Origin: Zymomonas mobilis subsp. mobilis ATCC 10988
GTDB lineage: Bacteria > Pseudomonadota > Alphaproteobacteria > Sphingomonadales > Sphingomonadaceae
Reading direction: 5' to 3'
NCBI RefSeq assembly: GCF_000175255.2
Contig: NC_017180.1
Location: 480 to 32,479 of the forward strand
DNA: 32,000 nt
In this document: positions 3 to 31,991 of the stretch, piece by piece
How positions within the stretch are numbered: position 1 is the stretch's first letter
How the letters are laid out: each line of letters begins with the position of its first letter
Translations under genes and position numbers: made by a program
Notes under the pieces: generated by a model
Databases searched by the model: none
What the model was told of the DNA's origin: nothing
The model's input: only the letters and a program-made list of their open reading frames with translations

Positions 3-221
3 GCGTTCGGTTCACGTGCACGTTGGACTGCTAAAGATTATTCTGATCTGGATATTGTAATACTTGGTGAGGAGCCTCTCTCCGAAGAATTATTTATGGA
101 TTTGGAAAAAAATTTCACAGAATCGGATTTACCTTGGAAAGTAGATATTGTTGATTGGTACAATTTAGACGACGATTTTAAAAAGATAATAGAAAAAGAT
201 TATGTTGTGATACAAAAAAGA
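3..221 (+). CDS. Minimal nucleotidyltransferase (MNT / NTP_transf_2-type) domain, C-terminal part. The 5' end lies outside the window and there is no stop codon before hsdS.
   Basis: The frame is open from base 3: AFGSRARWTAKDYSDLDIVILGEEPLSEELFMDLEKNFTESDLPWKVDIVDWYNLDDDFKKIIEKDYVVIQKR. The GSRAR-x6-SDLDI motif plus the later DIVD segment is the hallmark of MNT proteins of HEPN/MNT modules. Confidence 0.7.
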
Positions 222-1493
222 AATATCACTAAATGGCCATCCGTTCGCCTTGATTCGATTTTAGTACCAACCGAAAGAATTTCTTATGGTGTCGTTCAAC
301 CTGGCAAAGAATCCTTAAATGGCGTACCCATTGTGCGTGTATCAGATGTACGCGATGGAATGATAAAAACAGAAAAGCCTTTAAAAATTTCACAAGAGGT
401 TGAAAATTCGTATTTACGCACACGTTTAACAGGAGGCGAACTCTTGCTGAGTATCGTTGGCACTGTTGGCGAAACGGCTATAGTGCCAGAATCTCTTAAA
501 GGATGGAATATCGCACGCGCAATTGCACGCATTCCAGTCCGAGAAGATATCGGCGCTCGATGGGTACAATTAGCACTTAAAACAGAAACCATTAAACAAC
601 TTATCAACAGCAAACTCAACACAACCGTACAACCAACACTTAATCTTCGTGATGTTTTTGAATTACCTGTACCGTTCCCATCTAAAGAAAAACGCTCCAG
701 TATTCTAAACATCCTCGGCTCCCTCGACGACAAAATCGACCTCAACCGCCGGACAAACGAAACACTGGAAGCCATGGCGCGAGCGTTGTTTCGGGACTGG
801 TTTGTCGACTTTGGGCCGACACGGGCAAAAATGGCCGGAGAAGCCCCTTACCTCGCACCAGAACTGTGGGAACTTTTTCCCGACAGGCTGGATGATGAAG
901 GTAAGCCAGAAGGGTGGAAAAATAGTCAAATTGGCAAACAATTTGATATTACCATGGGACAGTCCCCTCCTGGATATACATATAACTTAGACGGCAATGG
1001 TAAGCCTTTTTATCAAGGAAAAGCTGACTTCGGAACCATTTTCCCAACTCGTAGAATGTATTGCGCAGCCCCAAATCGTATGGCTTATACGTTTGATAGT
1101 TTGGTCAGCGTACGAGCACCTGTTGGAGAGGTAAATCTTTCAGCTGAAGAGTGTTGTATCGGAAGGGGGTTAGCAGCCATTCGCCATCCGCAGAATCTGC
1201 CTTACTATACCTATCTTGTAATGAAATCCCTAAGAAAAATATTTTTTTCTTTTGAAGACAACGGCACAGTATTCGGCTCCATCAACAAAAAGCAATTTGA
1301 AAAATTGGGTGTTTTAGAAAGTAAAGTCGAGAATGTTTTTGAGAAACGCGTAGACCCAATTTTTAAAAAAATTATTACCAATGAAGCCGAATCTTATACT
1401 CTTGCCCAGCTCCGAGACCTTCTTCTCCCAAAGCTCATGTCTGGTGAAATAAGTATCCGGAATGCCGAAAAGATGGTGAAAGACGCGGCATGA
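96..1493 (+). CDS. hsdS: Type I restriction-modification specificity subunit HsdS with two target-recognition domains. The HsdS-like sequence proper begins around 207-235; the ATG at 96 lies inside the MNT-like segment.
   Basis: TRD1 reads WPSVRLDSILVPTERISYGVVQPG...GELLLSIVGTVGETAIVP. The central conserved region reads LGSLDDKIDLNRRTNETLEAMARALFRDWFVDF. A second TRD follows, then the distal conserved LAQLRDLLLPKLMSGEI. The stop overlaps the hsdR start (ATGA at 1490-1493). Confidence 0.9.
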   Translation: MDLEKNFTESDLPWKVDIVDWYNLDDDFKKIIEKDYVVIQKRNITKWPSVRLDSILVPTERISYGVVQPGKESLNGVPIVRVSDVRDGMIKTEKPLKISQEVENSYLRTRLTGGELLLSIVGTVGETAIVPESLKGWNIARAIARIPVREDIGARWVQLALKTETIKQLINSKLNTTVQPTLNLRDVFELPVPFPSKEKRSSILNILGSLDDKIDLNRRTNETLEAMARALFRDWFVDFGPTRAKMAGEAPYLAPELWELFPDRLDDEGKPEGWKNSQIGKQFDITMGQSPPGYTYNLDGNGKPFYQGKADFGTIFPTRRMYCAAPNRMAYTFDSLVSVRAPVGEVNLSAEECCIGRGLAAIRHPQNLPYYTYLVMKSLRKIFFSFEDNGTVFGSINKKQFEKLGVLESKVENVFEKRVDPIFKKIITNEAESYTLAQLRDLLLPKLMSGEISIRNAEKMVKDAA

Positions 1494-4400
1494 GCTTTCT
1501 GTCTGAAAACGAGATCGAAGACTGGGCTTGCGATATTCTGCGCGAATGTGGCTACACCATTGTCTGGGGGCCAGATATTGCCCCCGGTGGCAAAAAGCCG
1601 GAACGCGCCTCGTTATCGGACGTCATTCTGGAAAAACGCCTGCGTGCGGCCATAGACCGTTTGAACCCACACCTTCTCCAAGCCTCGCGGGATGAAACTC
1701 TGCTGGCTCTGATCCGCGAAGACACACCCGACCATGTGGACGAAAACCGCCGCCTGCATGATTATCTGGTCAATGGCGTGCCGGTAGACGTGGTGCGCGA
1801 AGATGGCACACAGTCTGGCGACCGGGTGCGCCTTCTGGATTTTGATACCCCGGAGAATAATGACTTTCTGGTCGTGCGCCAGTTCGTCCTTGAAAAGGAC
1901 GAGGCCAACCGCAGGCCAGACCTCGTTCTGTTCATCAACGGCATGCCGCTTGGAGTGGTGGAACTCAAAAGCCCCAGTTCCGAGAACGCTACGCTGGATT
2001 CCGCATGGAACCAGTTCCAAACCTATCGCAGCCTTATTTCCTCCCTGTTCCGTTTCAATGAAGCGTTGATGATTTCAGATGGTACACAGGCCCGCGTTGG
2101 CTCCCTCACAGCCGGCCGTGACCGCTTCATGCCATGGCGCACCATCAACGGCGAAGACCTGATCGCCAAAAACCATGAGGAAATGGAAACCGTATTGCGG
2201 GGCGTGTTTACGCCACACTGGTTTCTGGGTCTGATCCGTGACTTTGTGCTGTTTGGCGAGAAGAACGGGAGTCCTATCAAAATTCTGGCGGGCTATCACC
2301 AGTTTCATGCCTGCCTGAAGGCTGTGACGCAGACTGTGCGGGCCTCTGCCCCGGATGGAAACCGCAAGGTGGGTGTAGTCTGGCACACGCAGGGGTCCGG
2401 CAAGAGCCTGCTCATGACGTTCTATGCAGGCGTGATCGCCCGCCACCCGGAGATGGAAAACCCCACCATCATTGTGCTGACAGACCGCAATGATCTGGAC
2501 GACCAGCTCTTCGCCACCTTCTCCGGCGCGCAGGCTTTACTCCGTCAGATACCGGAACAGGCGGACAGCCGAGACGACTTGCAGAAACTCCTCCGGCGTA
2601 CCTCGGGCGGTGTCATCTTTACCACCTTGCAGAAGTTCCAGCCCGAAGACGGCGAAACCAGCCTGCCCATGCTGACCGACCGGCGCAATGTGGTGGTCAT
2701 GGCAGATGAGGCGCACCGCAGCCAGTATGGGCTGGAAGCCAAATTCAACCCTAAGACCGGCAAAATGACCTATGGATTTGCCAAATATCTGCGCGACGCC
2801 CTTCCTAATGCCTCCTTTATCGGCTTTACCGGTACACCCATTGAAAATGCCGATGTGAACACACGCGGCATCTTTGGCGACTACATCGACATTTACGACA
2901 TCGCGCAGGCTGTCGAGGATGGCGCAACCGTGCCTATTTATTACGAAAGCCGCCTTGTGCGCATCGAACTGGATGAAGACCTCAAGGACGAGCTGGACGA
3001 TGAACTGGCCGATATTGTCGAAGGGCTTTGCGAGAACGAGGAACACAAGCTCAGCCAGAAATACTCCCGCGTAGAAGCTTTGGTCGGCTCGGAACCCCGC
3101 CTGCGCCGGATTGCCGTAGACCTTGTAACCCATTTTGAAAACCGCCTGAATGCCCTTGAAGGAAAAGGCATGATAGTTGGTATGAGCCGGGCCATTTGTG
3201 TGGCTCTGTATAACGAGATCATCCGCCTGCGCCCCGCATGGCATAGTGATGATGACAATGAAGGAGCCATCAAGGTGGTAATGACCGGCAGTTCATCCGA
3301 CCCTGCCGGGTTGCAGCCCCATATTGGCAAGAAATCCAAAGCCCGACGTGAACTACTGGCAAAGCGCATGAAGGACAACAATGACCCGCTCCGTCTGGTT
3401 ATTGTGCGCGACATGTGGCTGACGGGTTTTGACGTGCCTTCCATGCACACCATGTATGTGGATAAGCCTATGCGCGGGCATGGATTGATGCAGGCCATTG
3501 CCCGCGTCAACCGTGTATTCAAGGGCAAACCCGGTGGTCTGGTGGTAGACTATATCGGCCTCGCTCAGAATCTAAAGGCGGCTCTGGGTGAATATTCAGC
3601 CGGAGACCGCGAGCAGGTCGGCATTGATGAAGGCAAAGCCATCCGCGCCTTGCAGGAACGCTACGAAGTCGTGCGAGCCATGTTCAATCCTGGTCAGGCC
3701 GCTGGCTTTGACTACCGCCCAGCCTTGCAGGACGAGGCAACAGCTAAGACCAAGCTCTCCATCATGGCAGGAGCACTTGACCATATTCTGGGTCAGCAGC
3801 AACGCGCCATGGTAACAGCCAAAAGCGCTGAAGAGCGTAAAGCGATCCAGAAACGCTACCCGGATGGAGTCAAGGCGCTTTCAGTCGCCTTTGCTCTGGC
3901 CTCTGCCAGTGATGAAGCTGCCAGACTGCGCGATGAAATCGGGTTTTTCGAGGCAGTCAGGGCGGCACTGGTCAAAAGTGCGAGCAATGGCAGCGATGGA
4001 CGCAGTGCGCAGGAACTCGAGCTAGCTATCAAGCAACTGGTCAGCAAGGCGGTCATTTCAACCGATATTATCGATATCATGGAAGTCGCAGGCATTGGAA
4101 AACCTGATATTTCCATCCTCTCGGACACCTTCTTGCAGGAAGTGCGGGAAATGCCTCAGCGCAATCTGGCCATTGATGCGCTCAAAAAGCTGCTGGAAGG
4201 CCAGATACGTAGCCGCACACGCACCAACATCACGGAAGCCGAAGCTTTCTCACAAAGACTGGAACAAGCTGTCGCCCGTTACCATGCCAATGCACTCACA
4301 TCTGCCCAGATACTGGATGAACTTATCCGCATGGCGCATGATATGGTCTCCGCTTGCGACCGGGGCGAGGAACTGGGACTGACACAGGAAGAAATCGCCT

Positions 4401-4675
4401 TTTATGACGCACTCGCACAGAATGAAAGCGCCAAGGAGGCCATGGGTGACCCTGGTCTACGCGCTATTGCTACAGCTTTAGTAAAGACCATTCGGGTAAA
4501 TGCTACCGTTGATTGGACCGTCATGGCCCAAGCCCGCGCCAAAATGCGTACATCTGTCAAGCGTCTACTTCGCCGCTATGGATACCCGCCTGATATGCAA
4601 GATGAAGCTGTACAGCACATCCTGCGACAGGCCGAACAATTTGCACCTGTTTGGGCTGAGCAAGGAGGTATATAA
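1490..4675 (+). CDS. hsdR: Type I restriction enzyme R subunit (HsdR), 1061 aa
   Basis: N-terminal PD-(D/E)xK-like nuclease motif (PDLVLFINGMPLGVVELK). SF2 helicase motif I (WHTQGSGKSLLM) and motif II (MADEAHRSQ). The length and position after hsdS are typical. Confidence 0.95.
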   Translation: MSFLSENEIEDWACDILRECGYTIVWGPDIAPGGKKPERASLSDVILEKRLRAAIDRLNPHLLQASRDETLLALIREDTPDHVDENRRLHDYLVNGVPVDVVREDGTQSGDRVRLLDFDTPENNDFLVVRQFVLEKDEANRRPDLVLFINGMPLGVVELKSPSSENATLDSAWNQFQTYRSLISSLFRFNEALMISDGTQARVGSLTAGRDRFMPWRTINGEDLIAKNHEEMETVLRGVFTPHWFLGLIRDFVLFGEKNGSPIKILAGYHQFHACLKAVTQTVRASAPDGNRKVGVVWHTQGSGKSLLMTFYAGVIARHPEMENPTIIVLTDRNDLDDQLFATFSGAQALLRQIPEQADSRDDLQKLLRRTSGGVIFTTLQKFQPEDGETSLPMLTDRRNVVVMADEAHRSQYGLEAKFNPKTGKMTYGFAKYLRDALPNASFIGFTGTPIENADVNTRGIFGDYIDIYDIAQAVEDGATVPIYYESRLVRIELDEDLKDELDDELADIVEGLCENEEHKLSQKYSRVEALVGSEPRLRRIAVDLVTHFENRLNALEGKGMIVGMSRAICVALYNEIIRLRPAWHSDDDNEGAIKVVMTGSSSDPAGLQPHIGKKSKARRELLAKRMKDNNDPLRLVIVRDMWLTGFDVPSMHTMYVDKPMRGHGLMQAIARVNRVFKGKPGGLVVDYIGLAQNLKAALGEYSAGDREQVGIDEGKAIRALQERYEVVRAMFNPGQAAGFDYRPALQDEATAKTKLSIMAGALDHILGQQQRAMVTAKSAEERKAIQKRYPDGVKALSVAFALASASDEAARLRDEIGFFEAVRAALVKSASNGSDGRSAQELELAIKQLVSKAVISTDIIDIMEVAGIGKPDISILSDTFLQEVREMPQRNLAIDALKKLLEGQIRSRTRTNITEAEAFSQRLEQAVARYHANALTSAQILDELIRMAHDMVSACDRGEELGLTQEEIAFYDALAQNESAKEAMGDPGLRAIATALVKTIRVNATVDWTVMAQARAKMRTSVKRLLRRYGYPPDMQDEAVQHILRQAEQFAPVWAEQGGI

Positions 4676-11107: not shown

Positions 11108-11379
11108 ATAGAATGAAACGTAAACCCGATGTCAGCAAGTTTCACTTATCTAAAGACCCAGATGATTTTCTAAATGGAGCCATCGCGGATAAGGCTGAAA
11201 AGAAACAATCGAAAGTCGAAGTCAAGAAAACTGAAACGCAGCAGAAAATTTTTCGATTGCCCGTCGATGTTATTAATGCATTGAAATTACATGTTGCTCA
11301 TCAACAGGTCGAAACAGGGCAGAAAATAAGTGAAACGAAAATTGTTGAAAAGCTATTAAGAGAATATTTAAAATTATAG
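11104..11379 (+). CDS. Small partition adaptor / centromere-binding protein, RHH-like C-terminus (ParG/omega-like)
   Basis: 91 aa with its start overlapping the parA stop (ATGA). It has a basic, disordered N-terminus and the C-terminal [42 protein letters not shown], which fits a beta-strand plus two helices. Confidence 0.6.
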
Positions 11380-11455
11380 CATTATAGCATTATAGCATTA
11401 TAGCATTATAGCATTATAGCATTATAGCATTATAGCATTATAGCATTATAGCATT
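11373..11455. repeat. Ten perfect tandem copies of the octamer ATTATAGC plus a partial eleventh; candidate centromere (parS/parC-like)
   Basis: Direct count gives units at 11373, 11381 ... 11445, then att. The first unit contains the TAG stop of the adaptor gene. Confidence 0.9.
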
Positions 11456-12119
11456 TACTAGAGGTGCGGCTAGAATTTTACACAACAGGTATTTTAACAC
11501 TTTAAAAATTTGGCTCCTCAATAATGATATAGCTTAATGCATGGCGCATCATTTTTCTGAAATCCAAAATCCTATCAATTTAACAGAAAACTAAGTAGAG
11601 ATGTCGCATATAAACAGCGCGAAAATGACATTCGATATCATCAATTTAATAAGAAATCAGATCTATATATATGGGTTAAAATGATAGTCATAGTTGCGAC
11701 TTAAAAATGATATCATGTTATAATGATATTTTGATAACATTATAGATTTATATATAAGTTGTATGACTAACACTGCTATCATATTGGTCAAAAATAACAG
11801 AATATAAGCCTTAATTAGATGATCGGCAGCTTAACGATTTGATGATCATTATTCCTAATATGATATCTATCGATCCCCCCCCATTTTGCTAAAAAATAGA
11901 CAATTTGCTTAAATGCGCTGCCTTGAGATGAAATGAGATGAGGGTTCCAGCTTGTTTTTAGCTATATGCCGCTTTATAAGGCTAAATACGGAGGATTTAG
12001 GGTATGTTTGAGCTGTATCGATTTGAGCAAAAATAGGGGGGCAAATTTACCGGGGGCTTTGGTTGGCATCGAACGCAAGGGGTCTAAAAAAACATTTCTG
12101 AAATAATGTTATAGAACTT

Positions 12120-12203
12120 AAAAAGAGTAAGTTGTTTACTCCCTTTTCTAACGGATACCTCTTTTAAGATTACGCTGCCACTGCCCGCCGGACGGCATCT
12201 GGT
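12120..12203. repeat. Left copy of an approximately 80-bp imperfect direct repeat (partner at 14626-14704)
   Basis: aaaaagagtaagttgtttactcccttttctaacggatacctcttttaag..gctgccactgcccgcc aligns with aaaaaagaagtaagttgtcataccctcttttctaacgagtagtcttttaagccgccactgctcgcc. Roughly three quarters of positions are identical by eye. Confidence 0.6.
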
Positions 12204-12322
12204 TCTTTCCATAAAATCTTCAATAGCATCCTGATGGCAGGATCGAGAGCCACGCGTCCCTGTTCCCAATCCTGCCAAGTAGCGAGCGGTATGCCCATCA
12301 GATCAGCGGGACCTTTTCTAGA
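12170..12322 (-). pseudogene. 5'-truncated XRE-type HTH antitoxin-like gene fragment
   Basis: The minus frame reads SRKGPADLMGIPLATWQDWEQGRVALDPAIRMLLKILWKEPDAVRRAVAA*. It is paralogous to the C-terminal half of the intact gene at 20129-20410 (...VGTLRDWEQTRSTAPDYAIAYVKVISLHPEMVAEAVAA*). A stop codon lies immediately upstream and the N-terminal half is absent. Confidence 0.55.
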
Positions 12323-12635
12323 TTATACTCAAAGCGTGTTGGACAGTCTTAGTCGCCGGATATACATTGGAAAATGTTTCCTTATCTGTGCCGTCTACAT
12401 CTACCCGATGGAGAATATCTTACATCAATCGTATTCGATAGCCATTCTCGATCTACATGGTCGCCCAAATAATGGATATTTGGCTATTCACTAACTATTT
12501 TATTTTTAACTTATAAGAGACTACAATATTATTTTAATTAAACATAGTTACCAGATAATAGATGATAAAATACATCATTCAAATTATGGTACGATATATT
12601 ATAATATTGAGTGATATAAATAGGAAATATTATTT

Positions 12636-14234
12636 ATGCATCTACTAAGCGCTCATATTACTAATTTTCGCCGCTTTGCTGATTTAACTATCAAAGAAAT
12701 ACCTAAAACAGCAAAACTAGTAGTGTTGGCTGGACCGAATGGATCTGGTAAATCATCATTTTTTGATGCCCTTCTTCTTCGATATCGTCTTGACAGTCAT
12801 TTCGGTTGGAATGGCGATCAAAAATATTATAATCGACAACACAGTGAGACAGCTACTTGGGATAAGAGAATTACTGTTGAAACAGACTGTGGTAATACTT
12901 TGAATCGAGGTAACGTTTATGTTCGTACAGCCTATCGAAACGATCCAGATTTTCAAACAACGGGTCTAACACGCCAAGAGAATATCCTCGACAACCCTCC
13001 TCTTCATCGTATGATTGAAGCTGATGCTACTGTCAGTGTGAACTATCAGCGCTTGGCATCACAAGCAATGGAAGATGTTTTTCAAAAAGAATCTCCTACC
13101 ACAACTATAGGACAATTTCGTGAAAACTTAATAGGTAAGATCGGAGTATCATTGAATCGATTGTTCTTAGATCTGAATCTAATTAGTGTAGGTAATCCAG
13201 TAGATCATGGTACCTTTGAATTTAGCAAGGGGATGTCAAAGAAATTTGAATACAAAAACCTATCTGCTGGTGAAAAGGCTGCTTTTGATCTTATTCTTGA
13301 CCTTGTCGTTAAGCGAGATAGCTATAATAACGCAATATACTGTATCGATGAGCCTGAAACACATATGAATACACGGCTGCAGGCTGCTCTTCTCAAAGAA
13401 CTTGTTGAATTAATTCCAGATAACTCCCAGCTCTGGATCGCATCACACTCAATAGGAATGATGCGAAAAGCACGTGAAATGTATGATGCTGATCCTTCAT
13501 CTGTAGCGTTTATCGACTTCAGTGGAGTTGATTTAGACGAACCTGTCGTGCTGACACCAACAAAGCCAACACGCGCATTCTGGAGGAATGTTATGCATGT
13601 TGCGCTTGATGACCTAGCCGAACTAATCGCACCTAAGCAGGTCATCATTTGCGAAGGTAATCCATCTGGAAATGTGCCGCGAAAAAATTCAAATCATGAT
13701 GCTGAAATTTATGGAGCAATTTTTGCTGAAGAATTTCCTGATGCTACTTTTATTTCAGCCGGTAATTCGAAAGAGGTGCAGAATGATTTTATAGGTTTGG
13801 CCGCTGTATTACCGAAACTGGCTACGGGTATAGAAATTATCCGTCTTATAGATCGTGATGATTATACAATTGAAGATATTAACGATTTTAAAAATAAAGG
13901 TATCCAAGTATTAAGCCAACGCCATATTGAATCCTACCTTTATGATGACGAAGTGCTGATTGCTTTGTGTAACTCCGTTGAAAAACCTGAAAAGAGTGCT
14001 GATCTCATAGATGAAAAGAGAAAAATTATCGACGAGATAGTAAAAAATGGAGCTCTAAGTGATGATATAAAAAAAGCTGCCGGAAAATTATCTGTCAAGG
14101 CCAAGAAAATATTGGAGCTAAGACAAGCTGGGAATGACACCCCTGGCTTCGAGCGTAATACACTTTCAAAAATCATTAAACCAAATATGGGCATCTATAA
14201 AAAATTAAGATTTGATATATTTGGCTTGAGATGA
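12636..14234 (+). CDS. ABC/SMC-type ATPase fused to a C-terminal TOPRIM/DUF4435-like domain (OLD-family / fused PARIS-like defence candidate), 532 aa
   Basis: ATPase motifs: Walker A GPNGSGKSS, ABC signature LSAGEKAAF, Walker B AIYCIDEPETHMN and H-loop IASHS. The C-terminal 200 aa carry VIICEG ... DAEIYGAIF ... ISAGNSKEV ... IRLIDRDD, which is the E...G...DxD TOPRIM pattern. Confidence 0.75.
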   Translation: MHLLSAHITNFRRFADLTIKEIPKTAKLVVLAGPNGSGKSSFFDALLLRYRLDSHFGWNGDQKYYNRQHSETATWDKRITVETDCGNTLNRGNVYVRTAYRNDPDFQTTGLTRQENILDNPPLHRMIEADATVSVNYQRLASQAMEDVFQKESPTTTIGQFRENLIGKIGVSLNRLFLDLNLISVGNPVDHGTFEFSKGMSKKFEYKNLSAGEKAAFDLILDLVVKRDSYNNAIYCIDEPETHMNTRLQAALLKELVELIPDNSQLWIASHSIGMMRKAREMYDADPSSVAFIDFSGVDLDEPVVLTPTKPTRAFWRNVMHVALDDLAELIAPKQVIICEGNPSGNVPRKNSNHDAEIYGAIFAEEFPDATFISAGNSKEVQNDFIGLAAVLPKLATGIEIIRLIDRDDYTIEDINDFKNKGIQVLSQRHIESYLYDDEVLIALCNSVEKPEKSADLIDEKRKIIDEIVKNGALSDDIKKAAGKLSVKAKKILELRQAGNDTPGFERNTLSKIIKPNMGIYKKLRFDIFGLR

Positions 14235-14625: not shown

Positions 14626-14704
14626 AAAAAAGAAGTAAGTTGTCATACCCTCTTTTCTAACGAGTAGTCTTTTAAGCCGCCACTGCTCGCCAGGCAGTGG
14701 CTGG
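14626..14704. repeat. Right copy of the approximately 80-bp direct repeat (partner at 12120-12203)
   Basis: See the left copy. The minus strand here ends a short frame ...FGPATAWRAVAA* (stop at 14672-14674). This is the same C-terminal ending as the antitoxin fragments. Confidence 0.6.
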
Positions 14705-19166: not shown

Positions 19167-19841
19167 TTAAATTGGCTTATTCTCTAATAACGTTTCGACA
19201 TGGCTTTTGCTGTTATCCAGCATCCAATCTGCTGTTGGTCTTGAGCGATATTCAATCAAACGAACAATTCTATCCCAATCAGCTTGCAAATCTCTTTCAA
19301 ATATCGGCTCGTGATGGGCTATGCGATTACGCAGCATCCGAATTTCACCCAGATCACTATAAAGGCTCTGTCTATGGTCTTTAATATCTTGCGTCTGGTC
19401 AAGGTTGGGGAATACTTTTAACAAATATGAACGCCAAAGCCTTTTATCATGGCGCTTCGTGAACATAGCCTGCCAGAATACAAAGTTCAGTTCTGGTATT
19501 ACCTTTCCAGTCGTTTCCGCCTTCCAACAAGCTTTGTTTACATCCGTCAATGCGCTGTATCCTGATTTTATAACCGGAAGGCTTCGTAGGAAGCCTTCTG
19601 ACCATGGCCAGCGATCTCCATAAGTATAGGATAGCGCTTCTGCTACAGCATTTCGGATAGCTATTTCTGTTATATGAAGGGGCGCTAGCAATGCGCCGGA
19701 TAGCTGTGCATTCCATACATATAAATCCAAGGCGACAAGATCATCTTTTCCTAATGCCCTAACCTTGTCTTCATATCTTCCAAGTCGGGGAGCCGATAAG
19801 GTCTTTCTAATAGAGATAATCTTATCTTGAATTGACAGCAT
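19167..19841 (-). CDS. Abi_2 family (AbiD/AbiF-like) abortive-infection protein with a HEPN motif
   Basis: N-terminal SAPRLGRYE...LYVWNAQLSGALLAPLHITEIAIRNAV and C-terminal IRMLRNRIAHHEPIF (the R-x4-H HEPN signature) are typical of Abi_2. Confidence 0.8.
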   Translation of the reverse strand: MLSIQDKIISIRKTLSAPRLGRYEDKVRALGKDDLVALDLYVWNAQLSGALLAPLHITEIAIRNAVAEALSYTYGDRWPWSEGFLRSLPVIKSGYSALTDVNKACWKAETTGKVIPELNFVFWQAMFTKRHDKRLWRSYLLKVFPNLDQTQDIKDHRQSLYSDLGEIRMLRNRIAHHEPIFERDLQADWDRIVRLIEYRSRPTADWMLDNSKSHVETLLENKPI

Positions 19842-21538: not shown

Positions 21539-22495
21539 TTATCTATTCAAACGCGCTGTCAGAATTGCCTTTGTCCGCTCGTCACAGAAGGCCGCCTCGA
21601 TGGCGTTTTTGTTAATTATATAGTCCGAGAGGCATGACCCAACGGTCCGCGCAAGGGCGTATTCTTGCAACAGGTCGGTATCAAAGAAACTCGGATCATC
21701 AGTGCCAAGCGTGATGACACATCCGGAATTGGCCAGCCTGCCGATCGGATGAGCGGTTATTGTTGGGTAAAGACCTAGGGCCACGTTACTACTAAGGCAG
21801 ACCTCGAGTGGAATTCGGGACGATGCAATCTGCCGCATCACATTTGGCGATTCGACTGCACGTACTCCATGCCCAACCCTGTCAAGGTTGAGGATTTCAA
21901 TTGCCTCAATAACCGTCTCGGCAGGACAGTGCTCGCCGGCGTGTGCTGTTGCCTTGAGGCCTTCCCCTCGAGCAATACTGAATGCCTCGGCAAAATCGCC
22001 AACGGAATACTGATTTTCGTCACCGGTCAGACCAAAACCGACCAATATGTTCGACCGTATGGATGTCGCCATGCGAGCAGCCTCTATGGCGGCTAGTGGG
22101 CCGAGGTGACGGACTGCAGTGGCGATGAGACAGGAATGCACACCCCACTCCTGACGTGCCCGATCAGCAGCGGCCTGTAGTGCTCTCAGTTGATCAAAAA
22201 ACGGAACGCCCGTGCGGGCGAGATCGGGAGGTGACAGCATGAATTCCACATAAGAACCACCCAACAAAGAGCATCGCTGGAGATATGATGTGGCGACTTG
22301 CTCAAGGTCGTTCGCAGACTTCACTACGGATGTGATCAGATCGTAGGATTTCAAAAAGGAAGGGAAATCATGCCACCCGTAGCGCGCAGCCGAGATTACA
22401 GAGGAGGGGATTGAAACGTTATTGCGTTTAGCAAGTAAAATTACTGTATCGCGGAGCAAGGTCCCCCGAAGGTGAACATGAAGGTCGACTAACAT
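21539..22495 (-). CDS. komA: Adenosine-deaminase-family protein (KomA-like)
   Basis: The metal and catalytic motifs of the A_deaminase fold are all present: DLHVHLRG (HxH), ATAHAGE, RVGHG and LGTDDPSFF. 318 aa with no extra domains. Confidence 0.85.
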   Translation of the reverse strand: MLVDLHVHLRGTLLRDTVILLAKRNNVSIPSSVISAARYGWHDFPSFLKSYDLITSVVKSANDLEQVATSYLQRCSLLGGSYVEFMLSPPDLARTGVPFFDQLRALQAAADRARQEWGVHSCLIATAVRHLGPLAAIEAARMATSIRSNILVGFGLTGDENQYSVGDFAEAFSIARGEGLKATAHAGEHCPAETVIEAIEILNLDRVGHGVRAVESPNVMRQIASSRIPLEVCLSSNVALGLYPTITAHPIGRLANSGCVITLGTDDPSFFDTDLLQEYALARTVGSCLSDYIINKNAIEAAFCDERTKAILTARLNR

Positions 22496-22538
22496 AGCGA
22501 CCGTTGATACAGATTAGACTAGGAGCGTGGAAGTCTAA

Positions 22539-23096
22539 ATGCGTATTAGATTCTTATCAAAGAACAAACATAAGATCGCGGAAGCTGAGAAAATACTCAA
22601 TCCTCTGCATGTCGAGGTTGTTCCTATCACGGTACAGATCGATGAACTTCAGACCATTGATGTCAAGGCGATCATCCGAAACAAAGTGCTACGCGCTTTC
22701 GATAGAATTGGCCATCGACTAATTGTGGAACAGACTTGTCTCTACTTGGACGCCCTGAACGGCTTTCCTGGGGGCCTTACTCAGCCGTTTTGGGATACAC
22801 TTGAAGCAGAGCGCTTCTGCGAGTTGTTCGGTCGTGGGGAAATGCGAGGCGTTACCGCGAAAACGTGGATCGGCTACTGCGACGGTCGGCAAATTTACAA
22901 ATTCGAAGGGGAGATCCGCGGCAGCGTCTCTTCTGAACCGCGTGGCGATCGTGCCTTCCAATGGGACTGCGTTTTCATTCCAGATGGTCATCAGGAAACA
23001 TTTGCTCAGATGGGCGAGAGGAAAAACGAGATATCGATGCGGCGCAGCGCGCTGAATGCCTTTGCGCAACACTTGCGGGAGGCAGCCGATGCTTGA
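22539..23096 (+). CDS. komB: HAM1/RdgB (ITPase)-fold protein with divergent catalytic motifs (KomB-like)
   Basis: FLSKNKHKIAEAE, LNGFPGGLT and KNEISMRRSAL follow the Ham1 family layout. However, the canonical DDSGL, FGYDP and SHR motifs read EQTCL, FQWDC and SMR. Confidence 0.75.
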   Translation: MRIRFLSKNKHKIAEAEKILNPLHVEVVPITVQIDELQTIDVKAIIRNKVLRAFDRIGHRLIVEQTCLYLDALNGFPGGLTQPFWDTLEAERFCELFGRGEMRGVTAKTWIGYCDGRQIYKFEGEIRGSVSSEPRGDRAFQWDCVFIPDGHQETFAQMGERKNEISMRRSALNAFAQHLREAADA

Positions 23097-23895
23097 CTTC
23101 CTTGCGCGCGAGATCCGCGAACATAGGGTGATTCTTTTCGTAGGAGCAGGCCTCTCGCGACCGTTAGGGCTTCCGTCGTGGGGAAAACTCATCAAGCACA
23201 TGGCACAAGAGCTTGGCTTCGACCGCGACGTCCTTGTCGGGCCAAGTGCTGATTATCTGCAGGTCGCAGAGTTTTACAAACTGAAGAAGGGAAACATCGG
23301 CGAATTGCGAAGTTGGATGGACAGGAGTTGGAATGTGTCCGACGATAAGCTACTGGCATCCAAAGTGCACCAGCAGATTGTCGATCTCAAATTTCCCCTC
23401 GTTTACACAACGAATTACGATAACAATCTTGAGCGAGCATTTGAGCTGCACGGAGTACAGGTCTCGAAAATTGCGTCAGTCATAGACATCGCCAATGCGA
23501 AGCCAGGCCATACTCACGTCATTAAGTTCCATGGAGACTTCGCCGACGACAACTCGCTGGTCCTTACCGAGACGGACTACTTCGAGAGGCTAGAATTAAA
23601 ATCGCCGCTCGACCTGAAGCTGCGGTCGGATGTTCTGGGACGCACGATCTTGTTTGTTGGGTACAGCCTGAAGGACCTAAATCTGCGTCTCCTTTTCTAC
23701 AAACTGAAGCGAACCTGGGATGGCACTCCCTATGCAAAGAAGCGTCCGCGGTCGTTTATTTTCCTTATCCGGCCCGACGTCGTTCAGGAGACGGTAATGG
23801 AAAGCCGCGGGGTCTCCCCCATCGTTTCAGATTCTCTTGATCCCGAAGATGCGTTGCCGGCGTTCTTCGAGCGTTTACTAGAATGGACCGGATAG
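23089..23895 (+). CDS. komC: Stand-alone SIR2_2-type (SIR2-like NADase) protein (KomC-like)
   Basis: VILFVGAGLSRPLGLPSWGKL, VYTTNYDNNLERAF, IKFHGD...LVLTETDY and ILFVGYSLKDLNLRLLF are the SIR2_2 motifs. The start at 23089 has a GGGAGG SD 6 nt upstream and overlaps the komB-like stop by 8 nt. Confidence 0.85.
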   Translation: MLDFLAREIREHRVILFVGAGLSRPLGLPSWGKLIKHMAQELGFDRDVLVGPSADYLQVAEFYKLKKGNIGELRSWMDRSWNVSDDKLLASKVHQQIVDLKFPLVYTTNYDNNLERAFELHGVQVSKIASVIDIANAKPGHTHVIKFHGDFADDNSLVLTETDYFERLELKSPLDLKLRSDVLGRTILFVGYSLKDLNLRLLFYKLKRTWDGTPYAKKRPRSFIFLIRPDVVQETVMESRGVSPIVSDSLDPEDALPAFFERLLEWTG

Positions 23896-24160
23896 ACGGC
23901 AGGTTTAGACAGTTTCTTCACGAAAGCTGGCGGTCTGAAAATGTTCTGACTTGACCGTGAGCAGCGCACCGTAACGAGGTCCGGTTTCGAGAAGGTACAC
24001 GGCCAAATTAAACGGTTGCCATGGAGGCGATTGCTGCCTGTCTATTTCATGTTTTCGAACAGACAGGCAACTAAGAGGGCGGATAGGTAGATTTCCAGTT
24101 ATGAGATCAGAAATTTGACAATGGAATTGATGAAAGAAAGTTCGTCTTATGGTCATTATT

Positions 24161-25096
24161 TTAAGAAATTGATTTAGGTAAATCGACCTTCTGCTGATTG
24201 GTAATGCCAAATGGGATGTGAACTGAGGGTGCTACAGCGCTGGCTGACCGTAGATGACCAGACTGATCATCGAAGAAAATATGCGGCTTAAGTACAGATA
24301 AAATTTTTCCTTTTTCGACCCCACCAAGAAAAAAGGCATCATTTGCCATAACATTCCAGCTCTTTAGAGTGCGGAGTGCTCGCTCGTGATAAGGAGCATT
24401 GCGTGCTGTAACTATCGATATCCTAAGCCTATTTTTATAATCAGGATGATTACTTTTATGTTCTTCTTCTATTTTTTGTATTTACGACATTTCTACTAGA
24501 AATTTTTGGAGAGGTCCTGGGTTATGTGGCTGCATAACATTTCGCGTTTCGTGTTCATGAAATCTATCTAAACCCGATGATTGCATCACGGCCTCAGATT
24601 CATCCCCGGCAAGCACTCCATCAAAATCAAATGCGATTCTTAGAGTATTACCTTTTTCGTCGTCTTGAAATGTGGAGTCGAGTACCTGACCGGCTGGATG
24701 TCCCAAATGGATTGCGGCGTCGACGTCTGGCTTATGAGCAGATAAAAATAAAGCAATATTAAAAGCTGGTATGTATTCATATGGGGATTTCCCCTGCATG
24801 AAAATTGCGCGGGTGATATCAAGACCATAATGGGATATCGTATCCATAACCCTCAAACCTGTGTCGGGGTCATTTCTTGATAGCAGCACTACTTCCACAA
24901 GCGGGTCTGCCTTATCAGGACTGAGATCATTTAATGATAACAGGCGCTTTACAAACGGAAAGGCGATACCCGTTGGAAGAGGGTTATGTAAATTTTCCTC
25001 TTGGTACTTTCTATATTTTTCCTCTCCGTCTTGTCTAAAAATGCTGTCTGAAACACTGAGATCAAAAACCGCGCTGGATGCGACACCAACCACCAA
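24161..25096 (-). pseudogene. 5'-nucleotidase (PF06189-like family) interrupted by a single in-frame TAA
   Basis: The N-terminal part (24485-25096) reads VVGVASSAVFDLS...EKYRKYQEENLHNPLPTGIAFPFVKRLLSLN...LRIAFDFDGVLAGDESE. A TAA follows at 24482-24484. The same frame then continues IQKIEEEH...ISIVTARNAPYHERALRTLKSWNVMANDAFFLGGVEKGKIL...PHIFFDDQ to 24161. The start is GTG or TTG, only 2-3 codons after an upstream stop. Confidence 0.75.
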
Positions 25097-30398: not shown

Positions 30399-31991
30399 AT
30401 GGCTCGCAGTCGTCTATCTAAAAATTCGGATGTAGCTCCAGCTTCCAAGCAAGCAAGCAAGGCCAAGACAGCGACTGCGACATTAGGATTTGAACAGCAG
30501 ATGTTTCTTGCTGCTGACAAGCTGCGCAAGAACCTTGAACCCTCAGATTACAAGCATGTTGCTCTTGGCCTAATCTTTCTGCGCTATATCTCCACTGCCT
30601 TTGAAGCCCGCCATGTTGCCTTGATGCTAGACGATCCCGCAGCAGCGGAAGACCCAGACGAATATCTAGCTGAAAATATCTTCTGGGTGCCGGAGACTGC
30701 TCGTTGGTCTCATCTTAGGGATAATGCCCGCTCCCCTAGCATCGGTAAGATAATTGATGAAGCCATGCTGGCCATTGAAAAAGCCAATCCGGAACAGCTC
30801 AAGGGTGTTCTCCCCAAGGATTACGGGCGGCCTGCCCTTGATAGCGTGATGCTGGGTGAGTTGATAGACCTGATCTCCGACATAGGCATGGGCGATACGG
30901 ACGACAAGGCGCGGGACGTGTTGGGTCGGGTCTATGAATACTTCCTTGGCGGGTTTGCTGGAGCTGAAGGCAAGCGCGGGGGCGAGTTTTACACGCCGTC
31001 CAGCGTGGTACGCACGCTAGTTTCCATGCTCGAACCCTACAAGGGCCGGGTGTATGACCCATGCTGTGGCTCTGGTGGTATGTTCGTGCAGTCTGAACGC
31101 TTTGTGGAAACCCATGGTGGCAAGCTGGGTGACATTGCCATTTACGGGCAGGAAAGCAACCACACTACGTGGCGTCTGGCTCGCATGAACCTTGCTGTGC
31201 GGGGTATTGGCGCGGATATCCGCTGGAACAATGAAGGCAGCTTTCTGCGCGATGAACTAAAAGACCTGCGCTTTGACTATATTCTGGCCAACCCGCCCTT
31301 TAACGTGTCGGACTGGTGGAATGCGTCACTAGAGGAAGACCCGCGCTGGCAGTATGGCAAACCGCCAGCAGGCAATGCCAACTATGCGTGGCTCCAACAT
31401 ATCCTGTGGCATCTGGCCCCCGACGGTACCGCTGGCGTGGTGCTGGCCAATGGTTCCATGTCCTCAAACCAGAACAGCGAAGGGGAAATTCGCCGCCGGA
31501 TGGTGGAAGCAGATGTTGTGGACTGCATGGTCGCCCTGCCCGGTCAGCTTTTTTATTCCACCCAGATTCCGGCCTGCCTGTGGTTCCTCACCCGCACCAA
31601 GAAGCAAAAAGGCTGGCGAGATCGGGGCGGAGAAATCCTGTTTATTGATGCCCGCAAGCTGGGCAAGCTTGTGGACCGCACCCGCCGGGAACTGACAGAC
31701 GAGGACGTGGCCCGCATTGCCGACACCTACCACGCATGGCGTGGAGAAAAGGACGCGGGCACATATGAGGATATTTCCGGTTTTTGCAAATCCGCTACAC
31801 TGGATGAAGTGGCGCATCAAGGCTTTGTGCTAACACCGGGCCGCTACGTGGGAGCAGAGGAAGTCGAAGAAGACAGCGTGCCATTTACTGAACGCTTCGC
31901 AGCCCTTGAGAAGACCCTGAAGGAGCAGTTTGCGCAGGGTGAAGCACTGAACGCGAAAATCATTGGCTCTTTGCGTCTAATTATACGATAA
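30399..31991 (+). CDS. hsdM: Type I restriction-modification DNA methyltransferase subunit HsdM
   Basis: HsdM_N-like [37 protein letters not shown], the AdoMet motif [12 protein letters not shown] and the catalytic ILANPPFN. Confidence 0.95.

Follow-up and report, generated by a model that had tools for sequence, protein, structure and literature searches.

A compact, probably PARIS-related single-chain protein on a Zymomonas mobilis replicon, with relatives embedded in restriction-modification operons

The gene at positions 12636 to 14234 of the forward strand in a 32,000-nucleotide (nt) stretch of Zymomonas mobilis subsp. mobilis ATCC 10988 (contig NC_017180.1, positions 480 to 32,479; the whole stretch is called the window below) encodes a protein of 532 amino acids (aa). 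Its sequence points to a self-contained single-polypeptide relative of the PARIS defence system, of the fused AriAB-like type, and we consider this assignment probable. An ATPase of the ATP-binding cassette (ABC) type is followed in the same chain by a domain similar to the DUF4435 family of TOPRIM nucleases, and in several phyla genes of this family lie inside operons of Type I restriction-modification (R-M) systems.

The assignment holds at the level of sequence profiles. Among the PADLOC models the best for the whole protein was AriAB, which represents fused PARIS (100.9 bits, E 1.8e-29), and a second AriAB model reached 53.1 bits. When aa 332-532 were searched alone, only three of the 5027 models matched, all of them PARIS models (AriAB, 3.9e-7; AriAB, 1.5e-5; AriB, 5.5e-4), and DUF4435 (PF14491) was the sole Pfam family found for the C-terminal half alone. 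A domain search of 1.84 billion representatives returned 569 clusters at E <= 0.001, mostly of proteins of 530-545 aa, and 40 diverse C-terminal domains, 28-47% identical to that of the window protein, were aligned and scanned singly. The two AriAB models matched 31 (best 6e-10) and 26 (best 1.6e-11) of these 40 domains, AriB matched 20 and GajA of the Gabija system one. DUF4435, counted at E <= 1, was found in 20 of the 40 (best 3.5e-7) and was the only recurrent Pfam family; the Toprim_OLD, Toprim and RloB models matched none of them. Some relatives also carry a precomputed PF14491 assignment, and phrog_25246, a phage 'moron' family of 616 positions, has matches in both halves of the window protein. 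The first-pass annotation of this DNA had named a fused PARIS- or OLD-type defence gene, and its PARIS side is upheld by these profiles.

A genuine PARIS locus was available for calibration. Searches of phages by tblastn gave only weak ATPase matches, and through one of these we came upon the P2-like Yersinia phage vB_YenM_31.17 (NC_070918.1; our locus L009, 2685-4834). This phage carries a two-gene PARIS, an AriA-like protein of 423 aa and a DUF4435 AriB of 292 aa, in the hotspot between repressor and integrase; its record calls the genes 'ATPase' and 'hypothetical protein'. The second gene is matched by the AriB model over its whole length (E 1.3e-23), and all its relatives carry PF14491. 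The phage pair scores 78-90 bits (AriA) and 82 bits (AriB) in PADLOC, against 100.9 bits for the window protein. The fusion hidden Markov models (HMMs) of Rousset et al. (2022) have thresholds of 80 for AAA_15+DUF4435 and 20 for AAA_21+DUF4435; we assumed the PADLOC AriAB models to be identical to these HMMs, and with about 45% coverage of the longer profile the match could fail a coverage filter.

The window shows one long open reading frame (ORF) for the gene. The features of the gene and of its ATPase half are as follows.

12636-14234, forward strand: coding sequence of the predicted ABC ATPase with DUF4435-like TOPRIM nuclease in a single chain (AriAB-like), ATG start, 532 aa (ORF listing and homologues)
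12578-12605, forward strand: promoter-like TTCAAA-16 nt-TATAAT of sigma-70-like type, about 30 nt upstream of the ATG (consensus match only)
12622-12625, forward strand: Shine-Dalgarno-like AGGA, 10 nt 5' of the ATG (read from the sequence)
12636-13535, forward strand: ABC/SMC-type ATPase head, aa 1-300 (Pfam, AlphaFold secondary structure, Foldseek, motif spacing)
12732-12758, forward strand: Walker A, GPNGSGKSS, K39 invariant (alignment, motif search, 78 genomes)
13260-13277, forward strand: ABC signature, LSAGEK (alignment, motif search)
13335-13358, forward strand: Walker B, IYCIDEPE, D238 and E239 invariant (alignment, motif search, 78 genomes)
13440-13451, forward strand: H-loop, ASHS, H271 invariant (alignment, motif search, 78 genomes)

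Over 100 full-length homologues, about 531 aa long, were found with E-values of 1e-197 to 1e-239; their source annotations go no further than 'AAA family ATPase', 'predicted ATPase' or 'hypothetical protein'. Since there are so many full-length homologues, and since the motif residues are invariant across 78 genomes of many phyla, the ORF and its motifs are not due to chance. The eight motifs quoted in the first-pass annotation were all located at the expected residues, four in the N-terminal part (GPNGSGKSS, aa 33-41; LSAGEK, 209-214; IDEPETHMN, 237-245; IASHS, 268-272) and four in the C-terminal part (VIICEG, 336-341; DAEIYGAIF, 355-363; ISAGNSKEV, 373-381; IRLIDRDD, 402-409). The ORF is real.

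The ATPase half is well defined. Pfam gave AAA_21 with 68.5 bits (cut-off 27), AAA_15 with 58.2 bits (cut-off 32.1) and SMC_N, also above its cut-off, and the nearest PADLOC models were AriAB, MAD3 and AriA. K39, D238, E239 and H271 are invariant in 78 of 78 genomes. An AlphaFold model of the whole protein had a mean predicted local distance difference test score (pLDDT) of 76 and matched PtuA, retron ATPases, GajA and Rad50 in Foldseek (E about 1e-9 to 1e-8). At the site where AriA has its coiled-coil, trigger-binding insertion, the model shows only a two-helix stub (aa 131-176; helices 131-150 and 158-176), and the spacing from Walker A to the signature is 176 aa in the window protein as opposed to 307 aa in the genuine phage AriA. 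The suggestion that the protein, being shorter than AriA plus AriB, is a compact subtype was confirmed by this spacing and by the partial match to the AriAB profile. We also noticed that aa 100-152 (window 12933-13091) contain many residues invariant in the close family (R101, F106, Q114, D130, N136, Y137, E146, D147), although the AlphaFold pLDDT there is only 26-44; because of this combination, the segment may be an interface that takes shape only once an oligomer or complex is assembled.

The features of the C-terminal half are listed below.

13536-13635, forward strand: linker, aa 301-333, one conserved helix (WRNVMHVALDDLAELIAP) and then a low-confidence hinge, aa 323-331 (alignment, models)
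13636-13955, forward strand: DUF4435-like TOPRIM core, aa 334-440 (alignments to PADLOC AriAB/AriB and Pfam DUF4435, secondary structure, conservation)
13653-13655, forward strand: codon of E340, candidate TOPRIM catalytic Glu and counterpart of AriB E26 (invariant in 78 of 78 genomes)
13851-13859, forward strand: codons of D406-R407-D408, candidate TOPRIM DxD metal site (D406 and D408 invariant in 78 of 78 genomes)
13956-14231, forward strand: C-terminal helical bundle, aa 441-532, with K479 invariant and G499/N500 near-invariant, shorter than its AriB counterpart (models, conservation)

The predicted order of elements in the core, beta1-alpha-beta2-alpha-beta3-alpha-beta4, is that of a TOPRIM domain, with E340 at the end of beta1 and D406-x-D408 after beta3. 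There is an insertion of about 11 aa before D355, G376..EV follows beta2, and R429-H430-x-E432 and E439 follow beta4; the PADLOC and Pfam alignments begin at D355, which corresponds to profile position 11-12. E340, D355, D406, D408, R429, E432 and K479 are invariant in all 78 genomes and E439 is kept in 61 of the 78. In AriB the metal-binding acidic cluster consists of E26, D30, D88, E90 and E122 (PMC11464382), and the order and spacing of the invariant acidic residues of the window family parallel this cluster and the motifs of the genuine AriB clade. The identities of the two halves correlate across the family (r = 0.87) and the family is almost free of indels; the co-evolution of the halves and the rarity of indels indicate a stable compact unit and not a decayed copy. 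A free-standing AriB-like form of the C-terminal domain was considered and rejected: the matches of about 250 aa begin without exception at MMRKA, an invariant motif of the fused protein, and seem to be truncated gene calls. One metagenomic protein of 659 aa (P0252) carries the same C-terminal DUF4435-like domain fused to an entirely different, non-ATPase N-terminal region of about 465 aa, so the nuclease module is recombinable with other sensor domains.

To look at the gene neighbourhoods, species-representative genomes were scanned for relatives. The scan gave 285 loci in Proteobacteria, Bacteroidota, Verrucomicrobiota, Planctomycetota, Chloroflexota, Acidobacteriota, Clostridia, Spirochaetia and other groups, and the flanks were analysed for the best 80 of the 285. 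When the flanking ORFs of these 80 loci were clustered, the only recurrent neighbours were R-M subunits, and a conserved protein partner of any other kind was thereby rejected. HsdS was encoded directly upstream in 13 of the 80 loci, HsdR directly downstream in 12 and HsdM further upstream in 7, their identities being confirmed by BLASTP to the Pfam-verified Hsd proteins of the window. R-M genes were adjacent in 20 of the 80 loci, at least nine of which have the order hsdM-hsdS-gene-hsdR, and six phyla are represented. In five loci of five lineages the stop codon of hsdS overlaps the ATG of the gene as ATGA, and in three Bacteroidales loci TAAnnATG junctions place the start of hsdR 2-3 nt past the stop of the gene. 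Members with an R-M link occur, scattered, in three of the five main sequence clusters. The relative most similar to the window protein (69% identity) has its gene 462 nt downstream of an hsdR whose product is 47% identical to the HsdR of the window. The window has a Type I R-M system of its own, which is a candidate for the guarded system.

30399-31991, forward strand: hsdM of the Type I R-M system, candidate guarded system, the link resting on the relatives (Pfam N6_Mtase, HsdM_N)
96-4675, forward strand: hsdS (96-1493) and hsdR (1490-4675), overlapping, with nothing inserted between them (Pfam)

The HsdM of the window is 59-62% identical to the HsdM of loci that embed relatives, and its HsdR is 47-51% identical to the HsdR flanking relatives. 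The link to Type I R-M, which the first-pass annotation had proposed from the shared replicon, thus gains comparative support from relatives embedded in hsd operons in many phyla. In our search of the literature, no paper was found that links DUF4435 or AriA/AriB fusions to hsd operons.

Two further kinds of neighbourhood were seen in the scan. In seven loci (L055, L061, L064, L079, L083, L084 and L087; mostly Bacteroidales, two of Clostridia type) a gene for a Mod-like DNA methylase is adjacent, usually 12-92 nt upstream, and several of them have a conserved ORF of 237-275 aa and of unknown function 25-110 nt downstream; these neighbours suggest that the homologue is embedded there in an R-M or methylase system of a second kind. 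In Aminobacter sp. (L004, 9600-10559) an ORF of 319 aa with no Pfam match follows the stop codon of the homologue by 4 nt in both places where the homologue was found, and it may be a lineage-specific partner.

Several results weigh against reading the protein as a PARIS relative that is tied to R-M. DUF4435 scores 15.6 bits on the whole protein and 17.7-18.2 bits when the C-terminus is taken alone, in both cases below the Pfam gathering score of 27 bits, which is also the threshold used by Rousset et al. (2022). A Foldseek search of the C-terminal model against the PDB and BFVD gave no significant match, and AriB, OLD and GajA were outside the top 50, so structural support for the fold is confined to its topology; this C-terminal-only model had a pLDDT of 80 and a predicted template modelling score of 0.75, but a pLDDT of 55-78 over the TOPRIM core. 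The similarity of the C-terminus to TOPRIM/DUF4435 that the first-pass annotation had claimed stands in the profile comparison, where DUF4435 is sub-threshold and recurrent. Profiles of the family and of the 40 C-terminal domains, compared with PDB sequences, gave weak P-loop matches and nothing for the C-terminus, and the solved AriB was not reached. Alignment of the C-terminal profile with the genuine AriB clade by hhalign was non-significant (E 0.16-0.19), though it was in register, with VEG/CEG, G..EV, DxD and H.xE aligned. As a control, the profile of the genuine AriB clade was itself compared with the PDB at E <= 10 and found nothing, the solved AriB included; since this clade likewise fails and AriB clades are too divergent, these negative results weigh little and we do not count them against homology.

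The remaining counter-arguments concern the length of the protein and the place of the gene. The match to the 694-position AriAB model is limited to positions 1-61 and 303-553 (about 45%), from which it is evident that the window family was not among the seeds, and the coiled-coil trigger-binding region of AriA, profile positions 62-302, is unmatched and largely absent. Of the 34 loci in the sequence cluster to which the window gene belongs, only four are R-M-linked. The window gene itself is not embedded in an R-M operon: it had been described as standing beside a Type I R-M plasmid backbone, and it does share a replicon with the Type I R-M genes but lies about 8 kb from them, with a GC content of 37% compared with 55% in the R-M cassette.

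The other single-chain and paired ATPase-TOPRIM systems have to be weighed at this point. A class 1 OLD nuclease such as P2 Old would be a stand-alone enzyme that acts on DNA and responds to inactivation of RecBCD, not to anti-restriction proteins. It shares with the window protein the layout of an N-terminal ABC ATPase and a C-terminal TOPRIM-like domain in one gene of about 530-590 aa, PARIS itself is classed with OLD-like systems, and for the full-length model Foldseek returned GajA and the OLD-type effector of retron Eco8 (E about 1e-9 to 1e-8). These structural matches are explained by the ATPase head, because PtuA, which has no TOPRIM domain, ranks higher. Neither Toprim_OLD (PF20469) nor any other Toprim Pfam family was listed at E <= 10 for the whole protein or the C-terminus, Toprim families matched none of the 40 relatives, and GajA was found in one of the 40 C-terminal domains compared with 31 for AriAB. 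We therefore regard an OLD nuclease as unlikely. The window protein resembles class 1 OLD and GajA in having ABC ATPase and TOPRIM in one chain and in the structure of the ATPase head, but the GajA models match the whole protein only in its ATPase half, and there is no neighbouring GajB/UvrD helicase. The nearest genes are that of a ParA partner (ending at 11379) and, on the opposite strand, YafQ/RelB (from 14976), as the first-pass annotation had implied in reporting no adjacent helicase or partner; its OLD or Gabija alternative found no support. A fused RloA/RloB pair of the AbiL type, first seen in Campylobacter Type I R-M loci, would not be a PARIS relative at all. Embedding in R-M loci is a hallmark of RloAB and common in the window family, RloA/RloB and AbiL likewise combine an ABC ATPase with a TOPRIM-like nuclease inside Type I R-M loci, and Deep et al. 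describe a two-gene PARIS-like RloAB pair within a Type I locus, an observation that the window family carries over to fused proteins. In addition, the AbiLi model matches the ATPase half (E 4e-14), and the top-probability match of the C-terminal model in BFVD is an RloB-like viral protein (probability 0.69, template modelling scores 0.35/0.37, E 0.086), although this match is not significant. However, the RloA/RloB pair is encoded by separate genes and has a domain of the RloB type, not DUF4435, neither RloB (PF13707) nor AbiLii matches the window protein or any of the 40 relatives, and AriAB and AriA outscore AbiLi on the ATPase half; the chances of a fused RloAB pair are accordingly poor.

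A function outside phage defence is also conceivable, and the position of the gene between the ParA partition module and two type II toxin-antitoxin pairs, in a slot filled in the plasmid pZYMOP02 by the operon of a Doc-family toxin, would suit a plasmid-maintenance or competition module, that is, a one-chain toxin with a built-in inhibitor. Depositors label AriA 'antitoxin', and PARIS is discussed as toxin-antitoxin-like. A single polypeptide, however, has no unstable antitoxin to drive post-segregational killing, and tblastn found no homologue on 72,556 PLSDB plasmids, whereas chromosomal, prophage and R-M-embedded copies are common, which makes such a module quite improbable. Less plausible still is a housekeeping ATPase for DNA repair or chromosome maintenance, similar to RecF, SbcC or Rad50 and with a non-nuclease C-terminal domain. 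SMC_N does score above its cut-off and RecF, SbcC and Rad50 match weakly at the Walker A region, but the latter matches are far below the family cut-offs and cover the P-loop only; furthermore, the spread across phyla is patchy (40-69% identity), the contexts are flanked by insertion sequences (IS), prophage or R-M, and the C-terminal acidic residues are invariant, so that this explanation is very improbable. PrrC of the EcoprrI Type Ic R-M locus is similar in that one chain holds an N-terminal ABC-type nucleoside triphosphatase (NTPase) and a C-terminal nuclease. The PrrC nuclease is HEPN-like, whereas the C-terminus of the window protein is a DUF4435-like TOPRIM, and no HEPN-like anticodon-nuclease or PrrC-type family was among its Pfam, NCBIfam and PADLOC matches. 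PrrC-type NTPases belong to the AAA_13 Pfam family, and no Pfam match to AAA_13 was listed for the window protein. Membership in OLD, Gabija, AbiL, MADS and PrrC was rejected.

As a PARIS relative, the window protein has both likenesses to and differences from the known forms. Single-gene fusions were part of the original definition of PARIS (Rousset et al., 2022), and two merged clades have been described ('merged 1' and 'merged 2'; Burman et al., 2024), so the remark in the first-pass annotation that fused PARIS had been reported was correct. Like these fusions, the window protein is a single chain of an AAA_15/21-type ABC ATPase followed by a DUF4435 TOPRIM, and the acidic cluster of the TOPRIM is conserved in its family. 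Unlike them, it has 532 aa as against HMM lengths of 570 and 694, and it lacks about 130 aa of the coiled-coil, trigger-binding insertion. Compared with AriB, the family has about 11 extra residues separating the catalytic Glu from the Asp that follows it, and its TOPRIM core is succeeded by a shorter helical region, of about 90 aa instead of about 170 aa. The frequent R-M embedding of the window family was not found reported for fused PARIS. With the two-gene PARIS of E. coli B185 (AriA and AriB; PDB 8UX9, 8V45) it has in common both enzymatic modules and the presumed logic of an ATPase sensor that controls a TOPRIM RNase. In canonical PARIS, AriA forms a hexamer via coiled-coil dimers, Ocr is bound at that interface and AriB is released and then dimerises (PMC11464382); in the window protein the coiled coil is reduced to the two-helix stub and the nuclease cannot be released from the chain. 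There is also no detectable sequence match to the solved AriB, and the solved AriA is matched only with E 0.15.

PARIS is among the few immune systems known to sense phage counter-defence; it is called an anti-anti-restriction system, and both PARIS and PrrC have been described as R-M guardians. PrrC is activated when restriction is inhibited and targets tRNA-Lys. Its gene is embedded in, and co-localises with, the hsdMSR cluster. Within this cluster prrC lies between hsdS and hsdR. The same layout, hsdS-gene-hsdR, is seen in at least nine relatives of the window gene, but in the window hsdS runs directly into an overlapping hsdR, with the gene 8 kb away. Among the R-M-linked toxins listed by Makarova et al. 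(2012) there are no TOPRIM or ABC fusions, and no tested fused AriAB was found in the papers searched. There are earlier publications on fused PARIS genes, on R-M guardians and on PARIS-like RloAB pairs embedded in R-M loci; what appears to be new is a compact family without the coiled coil and with recurrent translational coupling to hsdS and hsdR.

The two-domain architecture, the conservation of the catalytic residues, the mobility of the gene and its linkage to R-M are shown by the sequences, whereas a role in defence, what triggers the protein, what it cuts and how its chains assemble are inferred by analogy with PARIS and PrrC. If the protein is a PARIS relative, it could work as follows. 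The N-terminal ABC ATPase head would be sensor and switch and would dimerise on ATP, and the C-terminal DUF4435-type TOPRIM would be a metal-dependent nuclease, kept inactive at rest by the ATPase head. A phage cue, most plausibly a restriction-disabling protein or a disabled Type I R-M complex, would shift the state of the ATPase and license the nuclease domain, which would probably pair in trans with its counterpart in a second chain. The target to be cut would then be a nucleic acid essential to the host, perhaps a tRNA such as tRNA-Lys if AriB and PrrC are a guide, and translation would stop before the phage cycle is completed, that is, by abortive infection. Since the coiled coil is largely missing and the nuclease is unreleasable from the fused chain, sensing and activation must differ in detail from those of canonical PARIS. 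It is possible, and we put it forward only tentatively, that the protein is an R-M guardian which combines the logic of PrrC with the chemistry of PARIS: the compact chain, devoid of the AriA coiled-coil sensor and frequently co-translated with the Type I complex (hsdS-ATGA-gene-hsdR), would be kept latent by this complex, or would monitor it, and its TOPRIM RNase would fire in cis upon inhibition of the complex.

The gene travels solo and is mobile. The backbone of the window is related to Zymomonas plasmids, and in pZYMOP02 the slot between the ParA module and YafQ/RelB holds a DUF1870-Doc toxin-antitoxin operon (L012, 4143-5294), whereas the window has there a 3' remnant of DUF1870 and the gene. 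A search for an RNA component, a tRNA or a terminator around the gene found none. The segment with the gene is bracketed by a diverged direct repeat.

12119-12432, reverse strand: remnant (3' part) of the DUF1870 gene (comparison with pZYMOP02)
12120-12189, forward strand: left copy of a 70-bp direct repeat, diverged (76% identity), bracketing the gene segment (repeat comparison)
14627-14691, forward strand: right copy of the 70-bp direct repeat (repeat comparison)

Elsewhere, the homologue follows a prophage endolysin gene in Leisingera and stands alone between housekeeping genes in Tardiphaga. In Methylorubrum aminovorans two direct IS copies of 849 bp, 99.9% identical (L011, 6879-7727 and 10831-11678), enclose a segment of 3.1 kb that contains only the homologue and a 41-aa ORF and resembles a composite transposon; a third, inverted copy of the IS lies 4 kb further.

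Some other properties of the window were noticed. The hsdM/hsdS/hsdR operon is split across its two ends, so the window is probably a circular replicon of about 32 kb. The R-M cassette, with 55% GC in a backbone of 36-40%, is 87-90% identical to cassettes of Acetobacter plasmids, and it looks separately acquired. At 11373-11455, starting in the last codons of the 91-aa ParA partner gene, the 8-bp ATTATAGC is repeated perfectly in tandem (10.4 copies), and this array probably serves the plasmid as its partition (centromere-like) site. Nucleotide-metabolism genes form a cluster at 21539-25096, and this cluster is defence-related in look. Its adenosine deaminase matches the deaminase part of the PADLOC model CARF_ADA (E 1e-30), a Ham1/ITPase gene overlaps by 41 nt that of a 279-aa SIR2_2 protein (like the SIR2 of ThsA, E 3e-32; no SLOG), and the 5'-nucleotidase is the PADLOC candidate PDC-S08 (297 bits); the cluster may be a defence module of the ATP-to-ITP (inosine triphosphate) type with its own detoxifier. 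An abortive-infection gene similar to Abi_2/PD-T4-5/AbiD at 19167-19841 on the reverse strand (PADLOC 1.8e-17) is a further defence candidate.

The activation model of PARIS rests on AriB's release from an AriA hexamer, and a fused chain poor in coiled coil poses the question of how it senses and fires. The family is a small single-gene model for this question: its members are uniform in length, occur in at least 285 species-representative genomes and share a catalytic set that does not vary at all, and since many members are translationally coupled to hsdS and hsdR, it is suited to tell the binding of anti-restriction proteins from the monitoring of the R-M complex. Because source annotations name its members only 'AAA family ATPase', defence annotation may miss the family. 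For Z. mobilis the matter has a practical side, in that its plasmids are named as known barriers to engineering (PMC8432527). The frequent location of family members inside R-M operons suggests a back-up role in immunity, as a switch that is thrown once restriction has been disabled. If the R-M-guardian reading is true, this would be a third, mechanistically distinct route of anti-anti-restriction, present under the label 'AAA family ATPase' in hundreds of species of many phyla.

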